Below the pieces are notes generated by a model, which saw only the letters and a program-made list of their open reading frames with translations, was not told the origin of the DNA and searched no databases. Below, in pieces: positions 19,810 to 28,356 of a stretch of DNA of 64,000 nucleotides; position 1 is the stretch's first letter; the number at the start of each line of letters is the position of its first letter. A program made the position numbers and the translations under genes. The DNA is taken from the NCBI GenBank assembly GCA_963817895.1, contig CAWFQB010000004.1, positions 768,001 through 832,000 on the forward strand. The letters are read 5' to 3'. The DNA is from an uncultured Chthonomonadaceae bacterium. Lineage in GTDB: Bacteria > Armatimonadota > Chthonomonadetes > Chthonomonadales > Chthonomonadaceae.

Positions 19810-21516
19810 TTAAATATAACTCGGCACGGTCATTTTTTCCTGCGCGGCCCATTGTTTGAGGAGGAGGGGGGCGTAATTCAAACGATCACCAGCGCGTTTG
19901 TCGCCCGGACCTTTGTTGCACCGTCCCTTCGCCTGCGTGACAGCGCGGCTTGCGTTGTTGACGGCGATAGTCATCACGTTGCGGTGCGTTTCCTCTGTCG
20001 CGCCTGCAATCCGCATAGACCAGATGGAGGTTTGTCCCCGCGCGCACGAGCGATCATAGGAGGCCACGCAATGATGCATGGTTTTGCCTTCCAGTTTCAA
20101 CGCCGCGCTGTCGAGCAGTTCCACGATTTGCCACTGTACGGCTTTGCCGGTATTCGGGTCGGGCGCGAACTCCGCATACGCCCCGATTCCCGATGGCTCC
20201 CACTGCCGGAATGATTTGCGGGTTTCCTTTGCCAGTTGCCGATGCCAGGCTTCCACGCGAATTTGCAAGGCGGCGGGTGTGCGCCCTTTCATGCTGAACG
20301 TCGGTTCAATAGGTTCCAAAACAACCGCCTGCCCGTCCGCGCCGATTTCTTCGCGGAGCGTGAATTTGCGATCATAGATAAAATCTACCATCGGGCCGAT
20401 CCAGTCCGTGTCCAGCATCGGATTATTCACGAAAAAGTGAATTACGGACTGCCAGAACTCGTGATCGGGCAGGGTTTCCAGATCATGCCCTAATCGTGTG
20501 GCAATCACGGCGCGGACGAGGGCTTCACTTCCGTCCAATGCCCGTATCTGCCCCCAGCGCAGCGCGGCCTCAACCGAATAATCCTCGGGAGCCAGCGCAA
20601 ACCAGTGCGCCGCCATTTTCGTCAGGGGAAAAGGAAGCGCGGCGGCGCGGATGTTCTGCCCCCTGCCGATATGCAAAAACCAGTCCTGATGCGCCAATGC
20701 CCGCGTATCCGCGCCCTCGAACCACACGCGATCCAGAAAGCCGGGAACCGCGTACTGAGTCAGCAAATGCCGCGCCAAACTGCCGAACTGCCGATGCGCG
20801 TTGCGGGTGTCCATCTGCCACTCGTCAGGCGGACGCTGCCAATCCCCGTAGCGCCGCGCAAGGGCATGAAGGCCGTCCAGAAACGTGTTGCCCGGATTAT
20901 GTCCCAGATCGGCGATAACGGGTTCCGAGCCGAACAAGCGCCCGCCCGCCTGTACACGCAGCAGTAGATTGAGCAACGCATGTTTTATTCGCGGGTCCGG
21001 TTCCGCTGCAAACAAACTCCCGATTTTATACAGGTAAGGTGTTTTCACTCCCCCTGCCATTTGCGGCTGTTGATACAAACGGATAATCGCGTTATCCGGC
21101 TTGCGCGTCTGCAGCCGGGACTGCGTGAGCGCGCATTGCGCCCGTTCGTCCTCCCTGTACTGTTTTTCCTGCCTGCGCCGCGTTTCCGGCTTGCTGTCAT
21201 CCATACCGAACCCCCGCGCTCTGCACCAGTCAGCATACGCGGTTTCGGTAGGGAAACCCAGCGCTTCCCAATGTCGGCGCAGTTCCTCGCGCCCCGCTTC
21301 CCGCTTCTTCTGCCTGTGCGCCGCCTGAACTTCCAGTCGCCGTTCCTGCCACGTTTTGTGCAGGTTTATGCGGAAGCCCTGTTCTCGACACCAGAGCCGA
21401 TACGCTTCCGCGCTTTCCAGACCCAACTCGGCCAGATGGCGCTTCAACTCACCTTCCGGCGTTCGGGCGGTTGCGGTACGGCAGGTTTGTTCGCGCTTCG
21501 TTCTCCGTTGTGGCAT
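19810..21516 (-). CDS. PcfJ-domain protein
   Basis: C-terminal LKLEGKTMHHCVASY...SIWSM...TIAV...QAKGRCN; two N-terminal LG....AY..WCR..GF repeats; GAGGT RBS. Confidence 0.8.
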   Translation of the reverse strand: MPQRRTKREQTCRTATARTPEGELKRHLAELGLESAEAYRLWCREQGFRINLHKTWQERRLEVQAAHRQKKREAGREELRRHWEALGFPTETAYADWCRARGFGMDDSKPETRRRQEKQYREDERAQCALTQSRLQTRKPDNAIIRLYQQPQMAGGVKTPYLYKIGSLFAAEPDPRIKHALLNLLLRVQAGGRLFGSEPVIADLGHNPGNTFLDGLHALARRYGDWQRPPDEWQMDTRNAHRQFGSLARHLLTQYAVPGFLDRVWFEGADTRALAHQDWFLHIGRGQNIRAAALPFPLTKMAAHWFALAPEDYSVEAALRWGQIRALDGSEALVRAVIATRLGHDLETLPDHEFWQSVIHFFVNNPMLDTDWIGPMVDFIYDRKFTLREEIGADGQAVVLEPIEPTFSMKGRTPAALQIRVEAWHRQLAKETRKSFRQWEPSGIGAYAEFAPDPNTGKAVQWQIVELLDSAALKLEGKTMHHCVASYDRSCARGQTSIWSMRIAGATEETHRNVMTIAVNNASRAVTQAKGRCNKGPGDKRAGDRLNYAPLLLKQWAAQEKMTVPSYI

Positions 21517-21561
21517 CTGTTGTTCCTTACCTCGTTGTACTTGCTGAAAACAGGAGAAAGC

Positions 21562-21771
21562 AGCCGCGAATGAACGCGAATACACGCGAGTAACATACGA
21601 AACGGCTGCTCGGCGGGCGGCGGTTTATCGGCGCGACTTCAGCTTGAAACTTTATCGCGTTTCAGGAGGCCAATGTTTAATGCCTCAAACTTTCATTTCC
21701 CAAATCACGGGCTATACGTCATTTGTAATGATTTTCAGCCCGTTCGCGTTTATTCGCGTTCATTCGCGGCT
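21562..21771. repeat. Inverted pair of 9-10-nt tandem repeats (gccgcgaatgaacgcgaatacacgcga); further copies near 35030 and 63658
   Basis: Direct sequence comparison. Confidence 0.8.
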
Positions 21772-22375: not shown

Positions 22376-24508
22376 ATGAACCGAGCGGCACAGCAGCGCG
22401 CCGCCATTCGCCGCCTGACGGAAAGCCTGACCACGCCCCTGTCCCCGGAGGACGTGGAGCAGATTGTCGTCGAAGAAGCGCGCCGCCTGACCGATGCGGC
22501 CAGCGCGGCTCTTTGCCTGCTTGCCCCCGAAGGCGATATGCTCGATTTCGTGGCCGCAGCCGGGGAAAACGCCGCCCTGATCGTCGGCCTGCGCATACGC
22601 CTCAACGATTCTCTATCTGAACCGGTGATTGCTACCGGGCGCTGTGTGCTGCTCGACGCCCGCCCGGTTCAGGAAGCGGGCGATTTATTTGCCGCTGCGC
22701 GAGAACCCTTACCCGAAGTGGTTCCCAAACGGGCGGAACGGCGAACAGCAGACGCGCTTGCTGCCCCCCTGCATCTAACCGCTTCGCCCGGCGATAAATC
22801 CGCGTCCACCCGTTCCGCCGCTGTGGTTCCTCTGATACGCGACGGGCGCATCGTAGGCACGCTTTCCGCTTCCAACAAGACCGCCGACGGCTCCTCTCCC
22901 CCCTCCGCTTTCCCCGCTTCCCCCATGTTCGATCAGGACGATTTAGAAATTTTGACCATGCTTGCCGAGTTTGCCGGACTGTCGCGGATGGTAGATTACA
23001 CCTTCCGCCTTGCCCGCGAACAGTCCCGCGAACTGGCTGTGCTGTACGACGCCGCGCATACGATTGCGGGCAGCCTGAACGTGCAGGAGGTCATGGACAG
23101 CGTACTCGCCGCCATTTGCACCCATCTGGAACACCACACGGCTATTCTGTTTCTGCTTAATGACGAGCGTTCGCACCTGTTCATTGCAGCCGAACGCGGC
23201 CTGACCGAAGACGAGCGCGAGATTCAGTTTAGCGTGGAATCGGGCGCCCATGCGCGGGTTCTGGATAGCGGCATCCCTCGCCTGATCGAAGACACGGACG
23301 CGGCGGAGGATTTCGAGCCGTTTTCCGAACGCGCCCATGCCCTTTCCGCCATGATCGCGCCTATTCGCAGCCGCGACGAAACGCACGGCCTGATACTCGT
23401 GACAAGCCTACAGCGCCGCGCCTACCATCCCGACGACCTGAAGTTGCTGTCCGCAGTGGGGATGCAGGCGGGAATCGCGATTGAAAACGCCTGGCTGTAC
23501 GAGGACGCGCAGCGGCAGGCCGAAGAAGCCACCGCCCTGTACGATCTATCGCAGCACGTCAACGCCACGCTGCACCTCGACCGTGTGCTGAACTTCGTCG
23601 CCGAAAGCGTCCTGAACCTGCTGAAAGTGGATAAGTTCGCGTTGTTGTTGTACGACAGGGAGGAGGGGCGGCTTGTCACGCGCCTGTCGCGGAATGTAGA
23701 TGAGAATGCCTTCGCCAACGCGCGCCCGCGCATTGGCGAAGGCATTGCGGGGTGGGTGTACGAGTGGCAGACGCCGCAAGCCGTTTCCGATGTGGCCGCG
23801 GACGCCCGCAACCGCAGCGCGCCCATAGATCAGGCGGATGTGGCTTCCACGCTCTGCGTCCCGATGCAGGTGGGGGAAGATGTGATCGGCGTTATTCACG
23901 CCATGAGCAGCAAGCGGCGGTTGTTCACCGTCGCGGAGATGGAACTGCTGTACACCATTGCGAATCAGGCCGCGTTCGCGATAGTCAACGCCATGCAGTA
24001 TCAGGAGGCCCGCGCCAAATCCTACGAGATGCGCCGCTACTTCCGCCGCGTTGCGCAGGCCATCGGTTCCGCTGTGGAATCGCAAAACCTGCCGCAACTG
24101 CTGGCCGACCTTGCCATTGAAATCATGCGGGCGGACCGCTGCGCCATTTACCGCATAGACGGGGATACGCTGCGCCTGCAAGCCACCAGCCATTTTCGTC
24201 CCACCGTCCCCCCGGATGAGTCCATGCCGCTCGGATTTGGACTGGCCGGAAGCGTGGCGAAACGCGGTCAATCTCTTGTACTTGCCAATCTCGACGAAGA
24301 CCCTCGTTCCCGCGTTCACGCCTGGCTGAACCGCGAACGCCTCACCTCCTATCTCGCGGTTCCCCTCAAATCCGGGCGGCAAACCGTGGGCGTAATCGAA
24401 ATCTACACGCAGGAACGCCGCGCCTTTTCCTCCGAAGAGGTTCAACTCCTCTCCATGTTCACCCGCCGCGCCCGCCTGAGCGAGAAAATCGCGCTGGCTA
24501 CAGTTTAA
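22376..24508 (+). CDS. Protein made of four tandem GAF domains
   Basis: Four repeats ending in V/AP(L/I/M)...G.(L/I)...F...(D/E)..(L/I)L; GEGIAGWV; no output domain. Confidence 0.85.
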   Translation: MNRAAQQRAAIRRLTESLTTPLSPEDVEQIVVEEARRLTDAASAALCLLAPEGDMLDFVAAAGENAALIVGLRIRLNDSLSEPVIATGRCVLLDARPVQEAGDLFAAAREPLPEVVPKRAERRTADALAAPLHLTASPGDKSASTRSAAVVPLIRDGRIVGTLSASNKTADGSSPPSAFPASPMFDQDDLEILTMLAEFAGLSRMVDYTFRLAREQSRELAVLYDAAHTIAGSLNVQEVMDSVLAAICTHLEHHTAILFLLNDERSHLFIAAERGLTEDEREIQFSVESGAHARVLDSGIPRLIEDTDAAEDFEPFSERAHALSAMIAPIRSRDETHGLILVTSLQRRAYHPDDLKLLSAVGMQAGIAIENAWLYEDAQRQAEEATALYDLSQHVNATLHLDRVLNFVAESVLNLLKVDKFALLLYDREEGRLVTRLSRNVDENAFANARPRIGEGIAGWVYEWQTPQAVSDVAADARNRSAPIDQADVASTLCVPMQVGEDVIGVIHAMSSKRRLFTVAEMELLYTIANQAAFAIVNAMQYQEARAKSYEMRRYFRRVAQAIGSAVESQNLPQLLADLAIEIMRADRCAIYRIDGDTLRLQATSHFRPTVPPDESMPLGFGLAGSVAKRGQSLVLANLDEDPRSRVHAWLNRERLTSYLAVPLKSGRQTVGVIEIYTQERRAFSSEEVQLLSMFTRRARLSEKIALATV

Positions 24509-25413
24509 TCCTCAACGGGTGGCGGAAATGGCCGGTCATCGGGTTTGAAGTCGCGCAGGTTGGAGCGCAACGCGTAGCCCACTTCGCCCGCCAGTTTGCC
24601 GCTCAGGATACGAATGTAGTCCGTCGTGCCGTTTCCGCGTTTGAGCAGTTTGGCCTGTGTTCCCGCATCCAGCAGCAGGACTTTGCCACTCGTCACCAGT
24701 TCGCGGTAGGCGTACTCGTCCTTAATCCGCATCACGTCCTCGAACGCGGCAAGGTCGGACTCGGACGGCACGAATTCAACTACAGCCCGGTCATCCGTGT
24801 TTTTCAACACGCCGATGTCGCCGCGCTGAATGCTGCTGGACAGTACATTAATTTCAGGAGGCGTAGTTTCATTGTCGCGTTTCCCCTGCGCTCTGTTTTT
24901 CAGCGATTCGGCTACCTTATGCAGGTTTTCCTTCAGACTCGACAGTTCATTTGCATCGTTCGGTTCTACGGATGTGCTGTCTTTGAGCAGTTGCTGAACT
25001 TCGGGACGCAAACGTTCTAACGTCGCGCCTGAATCCGCCAGTATTCGCCCCCCCAGACTGTCAGGTACGCGGGCAAGTCCGAGCAGGATATGCTCTGTTC
25101 CGATGTAGTTGGTTTGCAGTATCTTGGCCTCGGCATAGGCCATGTCAATCACCTGTTTCGCGCTGTCTGCAAGCTGCATGTCTTGCGCATTGCCGCCGGC
25201 TCCGCGCTGCGCATGCTGTTCCACTTCCGAGCGGATGCGCCGGGTAGAAATATGCAGGCGGTCTTCCAGAACTCGCGCCGCCACACAGTCGCCTTCTCGT
25301 AGTAATCCCAGCAGCACATGTTCCGAGCCGACCTCATGGTGTCCCCAACGCGCCGCTTCTTCCTGCGCGAAAAACACCACACGCCGCGCCCGCTCTGTAA
25401 GTCTCTGCCACAT
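24505..25413 (-). CDS. Stand-alone double Clp-N domain protein with an unknown C-terminal domain
   Basis: MWQRLTERARRVVFFAQEEA, GSEHVLLGL and IGTEHILLGL; no AAA+ Walker motifs. Confidence 0.85.
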   Translation of the reverse strand: MWQRLTERARRVVFFAQEEAARWGHHEVGSEHVLLGLLREGDCVAARVLEDRLHISTRRIRSEVEQHAQRGAGGNAQDMQLADSAKQVIDMAYAEAKILQTNYIGTEHILLGLARVPDSLGGRILADSGATLERLRPEVQQLLKDSTSVEPNDANELSSLKENLHKVAESLKNRAQGKRDNETTPPEINVLSSSIQRGDIGVLKNTDDRAVVEFVPSESDLAAFEDVMRIKDEYAYRELVTSGKVLLLDAGTQAKLLKRGNGTTDYIRILSGKLAGEVGYALRSNLRDFKPDDRPFPPPVED

Positions 25414-25440
25414 AGTTTGTTCAATCCTTTCGGAAGACAA

Positions 25441-25528
25441 GAATATGGAATATGGGAATGTAGGAATATGGGAATATGGGAAGCCGAATGGAAGAACCAC
25501 ATTCCCATATTCCATATTCCTACATTCC
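25441..25528. repeat. Inverted arrays of 7-8-nt tandem repeats (ggaatatg / catattcc)
   Basis: Seen directly in the intergenic gap. Confidence 0.85.
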
Positions 25529-25532
25529 GCCT

Positions 25533-26936
25533 TCATAACTTCGTTAAATCCAGTATGCTGTCAAGGCTGTGTCGGACGGGTGGCGCCTGACGCGGTTGCG
25601 GGTAATCGAATAACGCCCATGCCGCGTCTTCAACCGTTATCAAGCCCTGCCGAATTTTGTTGCGGGCATCGTCCCACAGGGAACCGCCGCCTGCGAACGC
25701 CTGCATCCACAGCGCGTTTTCATCGGCGCGTTCCGCGATGAGATGGCGCAGGGCATCATTGATTTCCATTACTTCAAACAGGCCGACGCGCCCCCTGTAG
25801 CCCGTTTGCCGGCAGTTGTCGCACCCGGTTCCCTTGCGGAACGGGCCATCCTCCAGCAGGGACAGGCCGGCGCGGGACAGGTCGCGTTCCGAGGGCGTGT
25901 AGGGCGCGGAACAATCGGGACACACGCGACGCGCCAATCGCAGACCAATCGCGCCCGCCAGATTGCCCGCCAGCAGATGATTGACTATTCCGATGTCGCG
26001 CAATCGCTGCGCCACCTGAACCGCGCTTCCGACATGCAATAGCGACAATACCAGATGCCCCGTGACTGCCGCTTCGATGCTCAATTCCGCGATCTCCTGA
26101 CTGCGGCACTCCGCCACATAAATGATGTCGGGGTCGGAGCGCATTATGCAGCGGAGCGCGGCGGTGTAGGTCAGGCCGGAGCGCCGATTGACGGCAACCT
26201 GCGAGACGCCGGATATCTGGTATTCGAATGGGTCTTCAACCGTGAGGATGTTTGCAGCGGGCGCGCTGACGGTATGGGCATAGCGCAGCAGGGCGTAAGC
26301 GAGGGTTGTTTTGCCGCTTGCCGCCGCGCCCGTTAAAATCACGTAACCATGCGGGCGTTCCATCAATCGCTTCACAGCCGCAAGCGTAGGTTCATCCATG
26401 CCGAGCGTATCCAGTTCCCGAAACACGTTCGATTTGTCCAGAATTCGCGCCGTAATCCGTTCGCCGGTGATGGTGGGCAGGACAGAAACGCGCAGGTCGA
26501 ACTCTTTCTGCTGATAGCGGCACTGGATTCGCCCGTCCTGCGGCAGTTTCTGCTCGGCCACGTTCATTTCCGCCATCACCTTCCATCTGTCTACAAGGGC
26601 GCGGTGCTGTTCAGCGGGAAGCCTGCCGACCTCCTGCAATCGCCCGTCAATTCGGTAGTAAACGGTCGTGCCGCGCCCCTGTCCCTGATGGTTCTCCGCG
26701 TCGGGCGTGATATGAATGTCGCTGGCGCGATCCCGAATGGCCTGTTGTATCTGCGCGTTGACCAGCCGCGTAACGCTCTCCTGACTGGCCGCTTCCAGCA
26801 TGTCGAGCAGGGCGCGGCTGCTTTCCAGTTCCGTTCGTAACGCTTCCGATTCAAACAGCGCAGCCTCGAAAGTGGTCCGCTCCTCCTCATTCATTTCGCC
26901 GCGCAAGTACGCCAGCGCCTGTTCCTGATACGTCAT
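25533..26936 (-). CDS. Anti-sigma-like N-terminal domain fused to a GspE/PilB-family ATPase
   Basis: N-terminus QEQALAYLRGEMNEEERTTFEAAL; ASDIHI, RIDG, LPQDGR, GAAASGKTT, TVEDP, DPDIIYVAE, TGHLV, CPDC/CDNC; AAGGAG RBS and ATGA overlap. Confidence 0.85.
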   Translation of the reverse strand: MTYQEQALAYLRGEMNEEERTTFEAALFESEALRTELESSRALLDMLEAASQESVTRLVNAQIQQAIRDRASDIHITPDAENHQGQGRGTTVYYRIDGRLQEVGRLPAEQHRALVDRWKVMAEMNVAEQKLPQDGRIQCRYQQKEFDLRVSVLPTITGERITARILDKSNVFRELDTLGMDEPTLAAVKRLMERPHGYVILTGAAASGKTTLAYALLRYAHTVSAPAANILTVEDPFEYQISGVSQVAVNRRSGLTYTAALRCIMRSDPDIIYVAECRSQEIAELSIEAAVTGHLVLSLLHVGSAVQVAQRLRDIGIVNHLLAGNLAGAIGLRLARRVCPDCSAPYTPSERDLSRAGLSLLEDGPFRKGTGCDNCRQTGYRGRVGLFEVMEINDALRHLIAERADENALWMQAFAGGGSLWDDARNKIRQGLITVEDAAWALFDYPQPRQAPPVRHSLDSILDLTKL

Positions 26937-27490
26937 AATTCTGTTTCTCCTTCGGAGAGTGTTTGCTTCAAGCGGCGAATGGCTTCCGACAGGCGCGACT
27001 TCACCGTACCCAGGGGAATTTGCAGTTGTCGCGCGATTTCCGCATACGTGAGTTGTTTTGAGTGACGGAGTTCTACCGCTTCGCGCAAATGGGGCGGTAA
27101 TTCGCTTATGGCTTGCCGCATTCGCGCCTGCCGGTCCTGCCGAAATACAATCCATTCCGGCTGTGTTTGTTCCGGCGTGGCGATATGCTGCGCCTCCTCG
27201 ACCGGTGAGCAAAGCGCGTCCTGCCGCAGCTTGCGCTTATGGTTGAGCAGGTGATGCTTGCCTATCTGGAACAGGTACGCGGAAAACTTGCCCGTCGGCT
27301 GATACGCCTGTCGCAGCAACCACAGCCGCAGAAACGTTTCCTGTACGCAATCGTCCGCCTGGGAGGATTCCAGCAGCAGCGCGGCGAAAAAGCGGCGTAA
27401 GGGTTCGCGGTAGCGTAGTGTTAATTTCTGAAACGCGCCCATGTCGCCCTTTTGCGCGCGCAGCATCAGTTCTATATCGCTTGGCTCCAT
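26933..27490 (-). CDS. ECF RNA polymerase sigma factor
   Basis: GD..AF..L..RY, ADD.VQETFLRLW, FSAYLF, LTYAEIA..L.IPLGTVKSRL. Confidence 0.93.
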   Translation of the reverse strand: MEPSDIELMLRAQKGDMGAFQKLTLRYREPLRRFFAALLLESSQADDCVQETFLRLWLLRQAYQPTGKFSAYLFQIGKHHLLNHKRKLRQDALCSPVEEAQHIATPEQTQPEWIVFRQDRQARMRQAISELPPHLREAVELRHSKQLTYAEIARQLQIPLGTVKSRLSEAIRRLKQTLSEGETEL

Positions 27491-27532
27491 CGGCTCTGGT
27501 TTCCCGCTCCCGCTTTCAAAGCTGTTCCGCTG

Positions 27533-27562
27533 TATACAGGTCAGCAAACGCGCCAAAGGTTC
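27533..27562 (-). promoter_or_regulatory. Candidate autoregulatory ECF promoter
   Basis: Minus strand GAACCTTT-N16-TGTATA about 43 nt upstream of the sigma start. Confidence 0.55.
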
Positions 27563-27585: not shown

Positions 27586-28077
27586 ATGCCTGACTTCGAC
27601 AACATTGATGACCTTGTGAAAAGCGGGCCGCGTCGTTTGCAGGACGCGGAAGAGTTGATGCAATTTCCTACGCATAATGCGCAGCGTTCCGACGCGCCGA
27701 CGCGCCATTTACGAGGCGCAATGTATCTGGCGGGATATGGCGTAGAGTGCCTGCTCAAAGCGTATATAATTGAACAAGAAGGCTGTCGCACTCTTACAGA
27801 AGCGCAGAATAAAATCAATGAACGACGCAAGCGCGAAGGCGCGGAATTGTTGCGTGATATTGCGGGTTCTGCCGCTGGACATAGTATTGATTACTTGTTG
27901 CGTTTAACTGACCTTTCCGACAAGTATGAGTTTGACATAAGACTTTGGGGACGGCTGGCACAATGGAAATCATTCTGGCGATATGATCCCAATCCGGCAA
28001 CACGGCAGGAAGCAGAAGTGTTTCTGACAGACATACTGGCCGCGATCAATTGGCTGAAACCTAAGGTTTTCTCGTAA
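27586..28077 (+). CDS. HEPN-domain protein, probably leaderless
   Basis: RRLQDAEEL, GAMYLAGYGVECLLKA, GHSIDYL, W...WRY; TACAAT lies 5 nt before the ATG and there is no RBS. Confidence 0.78.
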   Translation: MPDFDNIDDLVKSGPRRLQDAEELMQFPTHNAQRSDAPTRHLRGAMYLAGYGVECLLKAYIIEQEGCRTLTEAQNKINERRKREGAELLRDIAGSAAGHSIDYLLRLTDLSDKYEFDIRLWGRLAQWKSFWRYDPNPATRQEAEVFLTDILAAINWLKPKVFS

Positions 28078-28089
28078 GGAGTGGTAGCA

Positions 28090-28356
28090 ATGGCAAGCGC
28101 AATCTTCGATTTTGCAGAGGCGAGCCGCAAAGTGGAAACTGTTTTACGCAGCGCGTTCCCCACCAATACCGTCATCAAAACAGATGAAGGCTGGCATGGG
28201 CGTGTCCACGTCAAAATCATTTCCGATGCGTTGGATGGCAAAACCGCTCACCAAAAACAGGATTACGTCTGGGACATTCTAAACGCCGAACTTGGCGCGG
28301 ATGCGCAGGCCGTTTCTCTCGTCCTTGCCTATGGCTCCAACGAACTTCTGGACTAA
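28090..28356 (+). CDS. Small BolA-like fold protein
   Basis: VHVKIISDALDGKTAHQKQDYVWDIL resembles the BolA H..V.IVS..F.G.....R...V...L pattern; TAAGGAG RBS. Confidence 0.6.
   Translation: MASAIFDFAEASRKVETVLRSAFPTNTVIKTDEGWHGRVHVKIISDALDGKTAHQKQDYVWDILNAELGADAQAVSLVLAYGSNELLD

Follow-up and report, generated by a model that had tools for sequence, protein, structure and literature searches.

A class I anti-sigma domain joined to a PilB-type ATPase core beside an ECF sigma factor: a possible two-gene switch in Armatimonadota

In a stretch of 64,000 nucleotides from an uncultured Chthonomonadaceae bacterium (contig CAWFQB010000004.1, positions 768,001 to 832,000), referred to here as the window, a gene for a sigma factor of the extracytoplasmic function (ECF) type (26933..27490, 185 aa) is followed by a gene (25533..26936, 467 aa) whose predicted product joins an anti-sigma-like domain to the core of a PilB/GspE ATPase, with neither a transmembrane (TM) helix nor an MshEN or N1D domain; these two genes, an accessory Clp-N gene behind them (24505..25413, 302 aa), and all the elements of the operon described below lie on the minus strand. 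The fusion belongs to a family that is conserved phylum-wide in Armatimonadota and, as its position and sequence suggest, is very probably the anti-sigma factor of the co-translated ECF. The best overall explanation of the data, put forward here tentatively, is an Armatimonadota two-gene ECF switch, in which a soluble anti-sigma factor would use a duplicated PilB core as its signalling body; this body is probably regulatory, acting as a sensor or a scaffold, rather than force-generating.

Architecture and conservation of the fusion

The ECF stop codon and the fusion start codon overlap as ATGA, as a first-pass annotation of the window had noted, and the sigma factor is confined to sigma2 and sigma4 (Pfam Sigma70_r2 at residues 26–89 and Sigma70_r4_2 at 123–174); it scores 95.8 bits against a TIGR02937 cut-off of 42.9, and among the 25 NCBIfam matches listed only the superfamily passes its cut-off. 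A TM-like stretch is present in none of the three operon proteins, and the best 19-residue hydropathy of the fusion (1.52) falls within the ATPase, in agreement with the cytoplasmic location proposed in that annotation. Residues 8–34 of the fusion give a weak match to zf-HC2 (E 0.032), and residues 8–80 match the NCBIfam anti-sigma family NF052375 at E 5e-6, under its cut-off; the same model matches 17 of 17 N-termini of the family at E ≤ 0.01, all of them under the full-length cut-off. AlphaFold2 places helices at residues 3–11, 17–29, and from 31 onward, that is, a bundle of three helices; the pLDDT is 83 in the model of residues 1–62. When this model was compared with known structures, all the rows at ranks 1–12 listed by Foldseek were anti-sigma domains, each of them weak (E 0.47–5.4), and the top four among 48,161 chains in VIA were RslA (Z 7.0, root mean square deviation 5.2 over 61 residues), PupR (6.2), RsiW (5.5), and RskA (5.5). 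A joint family profile searched against the PDB matched RslA (E 2.4e-6), RsiW (0.014), DdvA (0.04, weak), and RsrA; the zinc-less N-terminal profile alone found no solved anti-sigma by sequence, so that the sequence link of the zinc-less N-terminus to solved anti-sigmas depends on the zinc-type relatives in the profile. Among the best 150 matches in 1.84 billion representatives, 27 carry the PilB core, and 89 of the other 123 carry a TM-like stretch, the usual layout of membrane anti-sigmas. The annotation had described the first ~45 residues as anti-sigma-like without the zf-HC2 ligands, and had named a match to an ordinary PilB N-domain as the alternative; NF052375, the profiles, and the fold searches, the best matches of which are solved anti-sigma folds, all point to the former. 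As judged from these sequence and model comparisons, residues 1–50 (26787..26936) are a zinc-less homologue of helices 1–3 of the class I anti-sigma domain.

The ligands of the zinc-binding anti-sigma (ZAS) motif (Cys plus Hx3Cx2C) are found in 62 of 124 dereplicated family proteins and are absent from the window's protein, as from the whole clade of 29 rows that holds it. In a quick version of the tree, from which the poorly aligned rows P0076 and P0083 were left out, the zinc-less fusions form this one clade (SH-aLRT 99), with long branches; the branching at the base of the zinc-type groups is not resolved, and L186 is placed among canonical Armatimonadota PilB, so that a single origin of all the fusions does not follow from the tree.

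Full-length homologues occur in 4 of 40 relatives (85, 56, 52, and 50% identity) and in 18 database clusters. A profile of the first 52 residues has matches in 40 of 401 Armatimonadota genomes, and the 30 loci fetched from it comprise 27 fusions and three ordinary anti-sigma genes. With a broader profile, covering the anti-sigma part and the start of N2D, the family is present as a single copy in 41 of the 401 genomes, distributed over 19 families, which is a lower bound, since 12 candidates per genome were scored. The same profile retrieves 108 database proteins, all of which show the fusion layout with the exception of about six long PilB-type proteins; the named fusion matches are Armatimonadota or 'bacterium'. 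A family-specific pattern search of contigs found one fusion among the 80 loci listed, and the range may reach beyond Armatimonadota. The architecture is already in databases under automatic names, and an ESM Atlas cluster of 165 members, with Armatimonadota as the commonest taxon, is annotated with T2SSE in 100% and with zf-HC2 in 59% of them. The intact homologues in independent genomes rule out a misassembled junction. The fusion is frameshifted in a few assemblies (L162/L187, L183).

An ECF gene adjoins the fusion in 47 of 48 loci, upstream in 46 and downstream in one (L200:4983-7237), and the sole locus without it has only ~190 nt of upstream sequence; in this count 15 loci were checked on the first 100 residues of the fusion only, and some loci are close kin. 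Both domains and the ECF adjacency are thus retained in relatives, and any ECF match is found in only 4 of 117 ordinary PilB/GspE loci. The ECFs at the fusion loci are orthologous, with 32–88% identity to the window's ECF, and their divergence correlates with that of the anti-sigma part (rho 0.66) no less well than with that of the core (rho 0.50), a weak result over 22 loci. No conserved neighbour other than the ECF was found at the fusion loci. Among the individual arrangements, L022 has a 107-aa open reading frame (ORF) inserted between ECF and fusion (L022:5550-5873), and L197 has a second PilB core, without the anti-sigma part, behind the fusion (L197:3338-6060). In addition, a second operon type, made up of an ECF, a 147-aa ZAS protein, and a PilT-like ATPase with a degenerate Walker A, occurs in 3 of the 41 family genomes (G000:C3:282530-284687, or L234/L250; L251 in G002; L252 in G011); its PilT-like gene is frameshifted in G000 and intact in G002, and GAACC lies upstream in G000. 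This second type suggests that in this lineage ECF switches became tied to pilus ATPases on more than one occasion.

The candidate ECF promoter that the first-pass annotation had placed before the operon is found as a conserved motif in orthologues. Its predicted −35 element, GAACCTTT (27555..27562), is in register with orthologous sites, and the putative −10 region, GACCTGTATA (27533..27542), 12 nt past it, fits the core of the zinc-less clade, AAC(C/T)(C/T)TA, at 4 of 5 core positions; in one zinc-type group this part reads GC(A/G)TTCT. Within 200 nt upstream of the ECF, GAACC is present in 35 of the 43 loci with room for it, as compared with 602 of 2487 random 200-nt windows (24%), and GAACCTT in 22 of the 43 as compared with a 0.6% background. 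This conservation supports autoregulation. A strict zinc-type promoter pattern gives six matches in five genomes, five of which are the operon's own site; looser patterns give 45 matches in zinc-type genomes against 12 in a reversed control, and 45 of 51 sites inspected lie inside a frame of at least 150 aa, with no common target. A position weight matrix scan of the host genome shows no excess over shuffles (60 vs. 77–78 sites above 14 bits), and scans for sigma-70 promoters and terminators were at chance level. In these pattern-based searches, the operon's own promoter is the only recurring one, and no pilus regulon was found. At least one further ECF in the phylum shares the GAACCTTT element. 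A distinct motif, GAACCTTT-N14-AAC(C/T)AA, lies ahead of another ECF and of several proteins predicted to be secreted, in G000, G001, G002, G245, and G374 (sites at L209, L210, L213, L214, L216, L217, and G000:C1:1361641), a set that is likely the regulon of a separate ECF group.

The PilB-type core and its junction with the anti-sigma helices

Pfam T2SSE spans residues 49–438 of the fusion, and Pfam and NCBIfam scans gave no match to MshEN, so that the anti-sigma segment runs directly into the secretion-ATPase core, as first read from the sequence. The core folds as PilB (Foldseek E 1e-44, TM score 0.89–0.91 to the target), and the protein remains under the equivalog cut-offs of TIGR02533 (409.8 vs. 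630.25) and TIGR02538 (358.7 vs. 675.65). N2D corresponds to residues 51–170 (26427..26786) and the C-terminal ATPase domain (CTD) to residues 171–445 (25602..26426); the latter contains the Walker A GAAASGKTT (26304-26330), the Walker B IYVAECR (26103-26129), the His box TGHLVLSLLH (26034-26063), and a tetracysteine zinc site, C339/C342/C372/C375 (25812-25922). The deviations that had been reported for the Walker A, Walker B, and His box are real in the flanks of these motifs, but all six catalytic side chains (K209, E234, E238, E276, H294, and H301) are kept in the window's protein. The full six-residue set is present in 66 of 66 canonical PilB/GspE proteins, 42 of 62 zinc-type fusions, and 22 of 62 zinc-less fusions (64/124 overall), different residues being lost in different lineages; the Walker A lysine is lost in 11 of the 62 zinc-less and 3 of the 62 zinc-type proteins. 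The hydrolytic glutamate and the His box are lost more often than the Walker A glycine and threonine, the Asp-box glutamates, and the N2D arginines, and the tetracysteine is present in all 62 zinc-type and in 52 of the 62 zinc-less fusions. Residues R136, R149, R164, R336, E238, and E281, assigned to the subunit interface or the PilC-facing pore by mapping from the available part of PMC5424180 on motif spacing, are kept in 85–100%; PilB E400, the presumed equivalent of E281, is given there as a predicted PilC contact. Relative to the orthologue in G002, the ratio of nonsynonymous to synonymous substitution rates (dN/dS) is 0.10 for the anti-sigma part, 0.11 for N2D, and 0.09 for the CTD (dS 0.7–0.9). 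These values indicate purifying selection on all three domains, and the residue counts point to relaxed selection on catalysis across the family, the catalytic set being intact in the window's protein.

In comparison with PilB/GspE (Geobacter PilB, 5TSH; Vibrio EpsE, 1P9R), as far as these are covered by the sources available, the fusion shares the N2D plus CTD fold, the tetracysteine, and the Asp box, together with the arginine fingers and pore glutamate of PMC5424180; it differs in that N1D/MshEN is replaced by the anti-sigma domain, in its location outside a pilus or type II secretion system (T2SS) cluster, and in the drift of its catalytic motifs across the family. It is not classed as PilB, since N1D and the gene context are lacking, nor as ZAS, since the ligands are absent from the window's protein. 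The host genome (7.5 Mb, 81% complete) contains elsewhere three full-length PilB/GspE, PilT, PilC-like ORFs, PilM, three secretins, and 75 prepilin-like ORFs, and its canonical pilB-pilT-pilC lies on another contig than the fusion; the presence of complete pilus/T2SS components elsewhere indicates that the fusion is an extra paralogue and not the motor of the cell. In the window itself, where ORFs outside the operon were read by eye, no pilin, PilC, or secretin gene was recognized, as the first annotation had stated, the pilins on the prepilin motif and the other two by reading the ORF starts. A short, strongly degenerate PilB core, derived from canonical pilB and located directly behind it, was observed at G000:C1:803906-805282 (long tree branch).

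The AlphaFold2 apo models predict a single helix spanning residues 31–68, in which anti-sigma helix 3 continues into the first helix of N2D without a linker; the pLDDT across this join is 54–60 in the short model and 74–83 in the full model. From the anti-sigma Tyr10 to the N2D Asp73, 122 of 124 proteins have the same number of residues. Of the canonical PilB/GspE proteins, 60 of 66 carry a proline ahead of N2D helix 1; among the fusions, no more than 10 of 124 have it. Mechanical coupling between sigma binding and N2D would call for a joint of this kind, fixed and without proline. In class I anti-sigmas, according to the available part of PMC7406223, helix 4 sits on a flexible linker and is the main sigma2-binding element; in DdvA, according to that of PMC11506125, a three-helix domain traps the sigma factor by an extended helix 3.

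Candidate mechanism and competing explanations

In the mechanism favored here, the anti-sigma helices would take the place of the PilB N1D/MshEN and be rigidly joined to N2D, and the fusion would bind and silence the co-translated sigma factor until the PilB body changes its state, most likely by joining a real type IV pilus/T2SS motor, either in a mixed hexamer with PilB or by docking on PilC. Because the sigma-binding helix would belong to N2D, joining the motor could move or occlude it. The freed sigma factor would then transcribe its own operon and so increase the amount of fusion, the surplus of which would recapture the sigma factor when free; the net result would be a loop that limits itself and that signals, and perhaps dampens, the occupancy of the motor. 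That the signal is engagement with the pilus machine is plausible, if not quite probable; the more specific proposal that a pseudo-motor in the pilus/T2SS machine releases the ECF mechanically, its assembly or nucleotide state being transmitted via the one rigid shared helix, is somewhat doubtful. If true, such rigid-helix release would provide pili with a checkpoint that leads directly from motor to transcription, to which a counterpart based on PilT would exist in the same genomes. The FliA–FlgM checkpoint, in which an anti-sigma ties transcription to the condition of a machine at the cell surface, may be a functional analogy; FlgM is exported and unrelated in sequence to the fusion, in which the motor paralogue would be the sensor and the sigma factor an ECF.

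Several observations weigh against this interpretation. The matches of the window's N-terminal segment are individually weak (Foldseek E ≥ 0.47), and the VIA Z of 7.0 falls in the chance range for small helical bundles; in the apo models the fusion has no separate helix 4, N2D helix 1 occupying that slot. The searches recovered no promoter ahead of pilin or pil genes (5 of 75 prepilins, ~3 expected), and no pilus gene is a conserved neighbour, with one divergent pilM-like cluster (L206:6811-11000) in the 26 loci listed. Since the window's protein and two thirds of the zinc-type proteins are intact, many fusions may be active ATPases; the conserved residues at the interface agree equally well with a homo-hexamer and with a mixed hexamer, and the 66 canonical controls are skewed to Acidobacteriota and Armatimonadota PilBs.

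The better retention of nucleotide-contacting residues than of the hydrolytic glutamate and His box, and the fact that linkage to pilus genes was not found, would also agree with a stand-alone nucleotide or energy sensor, in which the fusion assembles into a hexamer of its own and ATP/ADP occupancy, rather than the pilus machine, shifts N2D and so controls the release of the sigma factor. This is nevertheless unlikely, given the losses of the Walker A lysine, the retention of a pore glutamate that is needless for nucleotide binding, and the parallel PilT-like operon, which points to pili and not to any ATPase. It is improbable that the fusion is instead a sigma-induced alternative motor subunit, active or braking, which acts at the pilus and uses its anti-sigma part only to limit its own synthesis: in about half of the family one or more catalytic residues are missing, so that an active motor role cannot be general, even though the window's protein and 64 of the 124 members are intact, L186 groups with canonical PilB, and L197 has an anti-sigma-less core behind the fusion. 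The restriction of recurring promoters to the operon's own would fit such a subunit, but pattern-based regulon searches would miss degenerate sites; this alternative also overlaps the favored switch, from which it differs mainly in which output matters.

Three further explanations have much less to recommend them. The Clp-linked proteolysis that the first-pass annotation had tentatively included in the switch does not belong to its core: only 7 of 48 loci, every one of them zinc-less and from at least two families (the window, L021, L022, L023, L112, L187, and the partial locus L145, itself outside the 48), carry the ClpC-derived Clp-N gene behind the fusion, and its absence from most loci, including all the zinc-type loci examined, rules it out as a core component. 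A proteolytic switch, with the PilB body as a degradation handle and Clp-N delivering the fusion to ClpCP and so freeing the sigma factor, is accordingly highly improbable; furthermore, a strong hairpin separates fusion and Clp-N gene in the window, other stand-alone Clp-N genes in the genome are unlinked to ECFs, and McsB (PF00217) was not found in the 81%-complete genome. Sensing of oxidation by thiols or zinc, through the ZAS ligands or the tetracysteine and with the ATPase fold as a passive scaffold, would be in line with the frequency of both motifs in the family and with the enrichment of zinc motifs among soluble class I anti-sigmas described in the available part of PMC7406223, yet the clade of the window lacks the ZAS ligands and some of its members also the tetracysteine, which leaves this explanation very little probability. 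Finally, it is barely credible that the N-terminal helices have become vestigial and have ceased to bind sigma, the gene being an orphan PilB paralogue in an ECF operon: the patchy distribution (~10% of genomes), the frameshifted assemblies and long branches, and other degenerate paralogues in the lineage could be read in this way, against a dN/dS of 0.10 for the anti-sigma part, anti-sigma residues and a junction that hardly vary over 19 families, and an unbroken ECF linkage.

The class I anti-sigmas RslA, RskA, RsiW, MucA/RseA, and ChrR share with the fusion the homologous helices 1–3 and the +1 position behind the ECF, and, in the portion of PMC7406223 available, also the coexistence of zinc and zinc-less forms in one family and a GAAC-type autoregulatory promoter; the fusion differs from them in having, in the apo models, no flexible linker with a separate helix 4, and in having a secretion-ATPase core in place of a TM, periplasmic, or cupin module. 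In the DdvA–DdvS pair of Myxococcus xanthus, as described in the corresponding portion of PMC11506125, the three-helix domain of DdvA is of the CHCC type and is attached to an oligomerising enzyme-like domain with an incomplete active site; unlike the fusion, DdvA sits in the membrane, has a periplasmic TPR-CHAT domain, and is probably released by intramembrane proteolysis. Literature searches, with most subscription journals outside their coverage, returned no description of an anti-sigma/PilB fusion. The main text of the ECF reclassification (PMC7826278) contains neither 'ATPase' nor 'pilus', and the accessible part of its supplement no T2SSE, PF00437, or pilus; AAA ATPases appear in the consulted part of PMC8999054 only as ECF257 neighbours, and that of PMC4072686 credits Fimbriimonas with 79 pseudopilin genes and 30 rpoE and makes no mention of such a fusion. 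The fusion is thus apparently undescribed in the literature searched; the novelty lies in the motor-ATPase body on an ECF/class I anti-sigma switch, the switch type itself being known.

The significance of the family depends on the role of the PilB body. If this is a sensor, the pair would constitute a minimal two-protein system in which to study how cells monitor the assembly or nucleotide state of the pilus motor, and an example of a motor turned pseudo-enzyme regulator. Active sites in the family range all the way from intact to eroded, and the phylum has pilin-like genes by the dozen and a regulation that has hardly been studied. The classification of ECF switches rests on how the anti-sigma senses its signal (membrane proteolysis, redox or zinc, partner switching); the available parts of the ECF reviews searched list no mechanism in which a soluble anti-sigma is built on a secretion-motor ATPase.

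Accessory Clp-N gene and surrounding region

The Clp-N protein reported behind the fusion is present, with its start corrected to 25413 from orthologues (302 aa). It contains a ClpC-derived double Clp-N domain (24979-25413; Pfam Clp_N in two stretches, E 1e-26), ~60% identical to the N-domain of the host's ClpC, and a C-terminal domain (24529-24861) without a Pfam family, possibly SH3-like, which is conserved in L021, L022, L023, and L145; its nearest neighbours in the Atlas are unnamed clusters (0.93–0.95), with SH3 families at 0.83–0.84. Mycobacterial ClpC2 is likewise a stand-alone double Clp-N protein without AAA+ modules; the accessory protein differs from this type in its derivation from the host's ClpC, its own C-terminal domain, and its occurrence as an occasional third gene. 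The gene starts 119 nt past the fusion, and the hairpin in the gap is a long imperfect palindrome (25440..25535; −48 kcal/mol, z −7.85), a low-copy element with similar elements at four places in the genome. Two tandem stand-alone Clp-N genes from ClpC, with differing C-terminal parts and no adjoining ECF, lie at G000:C1:1255040-1256821.

On the other side of the operon, two small genes divergent from the ECF occupy positions 27586-28356, a weak BolA-like ORF and a 163-aa ORF without a Pfam match, which looks HEPN-like; G002 has a Fic-like gene in this slot, which points to a variable insertion site. Converging on the operon at 22376-24508 is a gene for a 710-aa protein composed of four GAF domains only, syntenic in G001 and G002, and further away, at 19810-21585, lies that for a PcfJ-domain protein of ~570 aa whose N-terminal part contains repeated segments; it is syntenic in G002.

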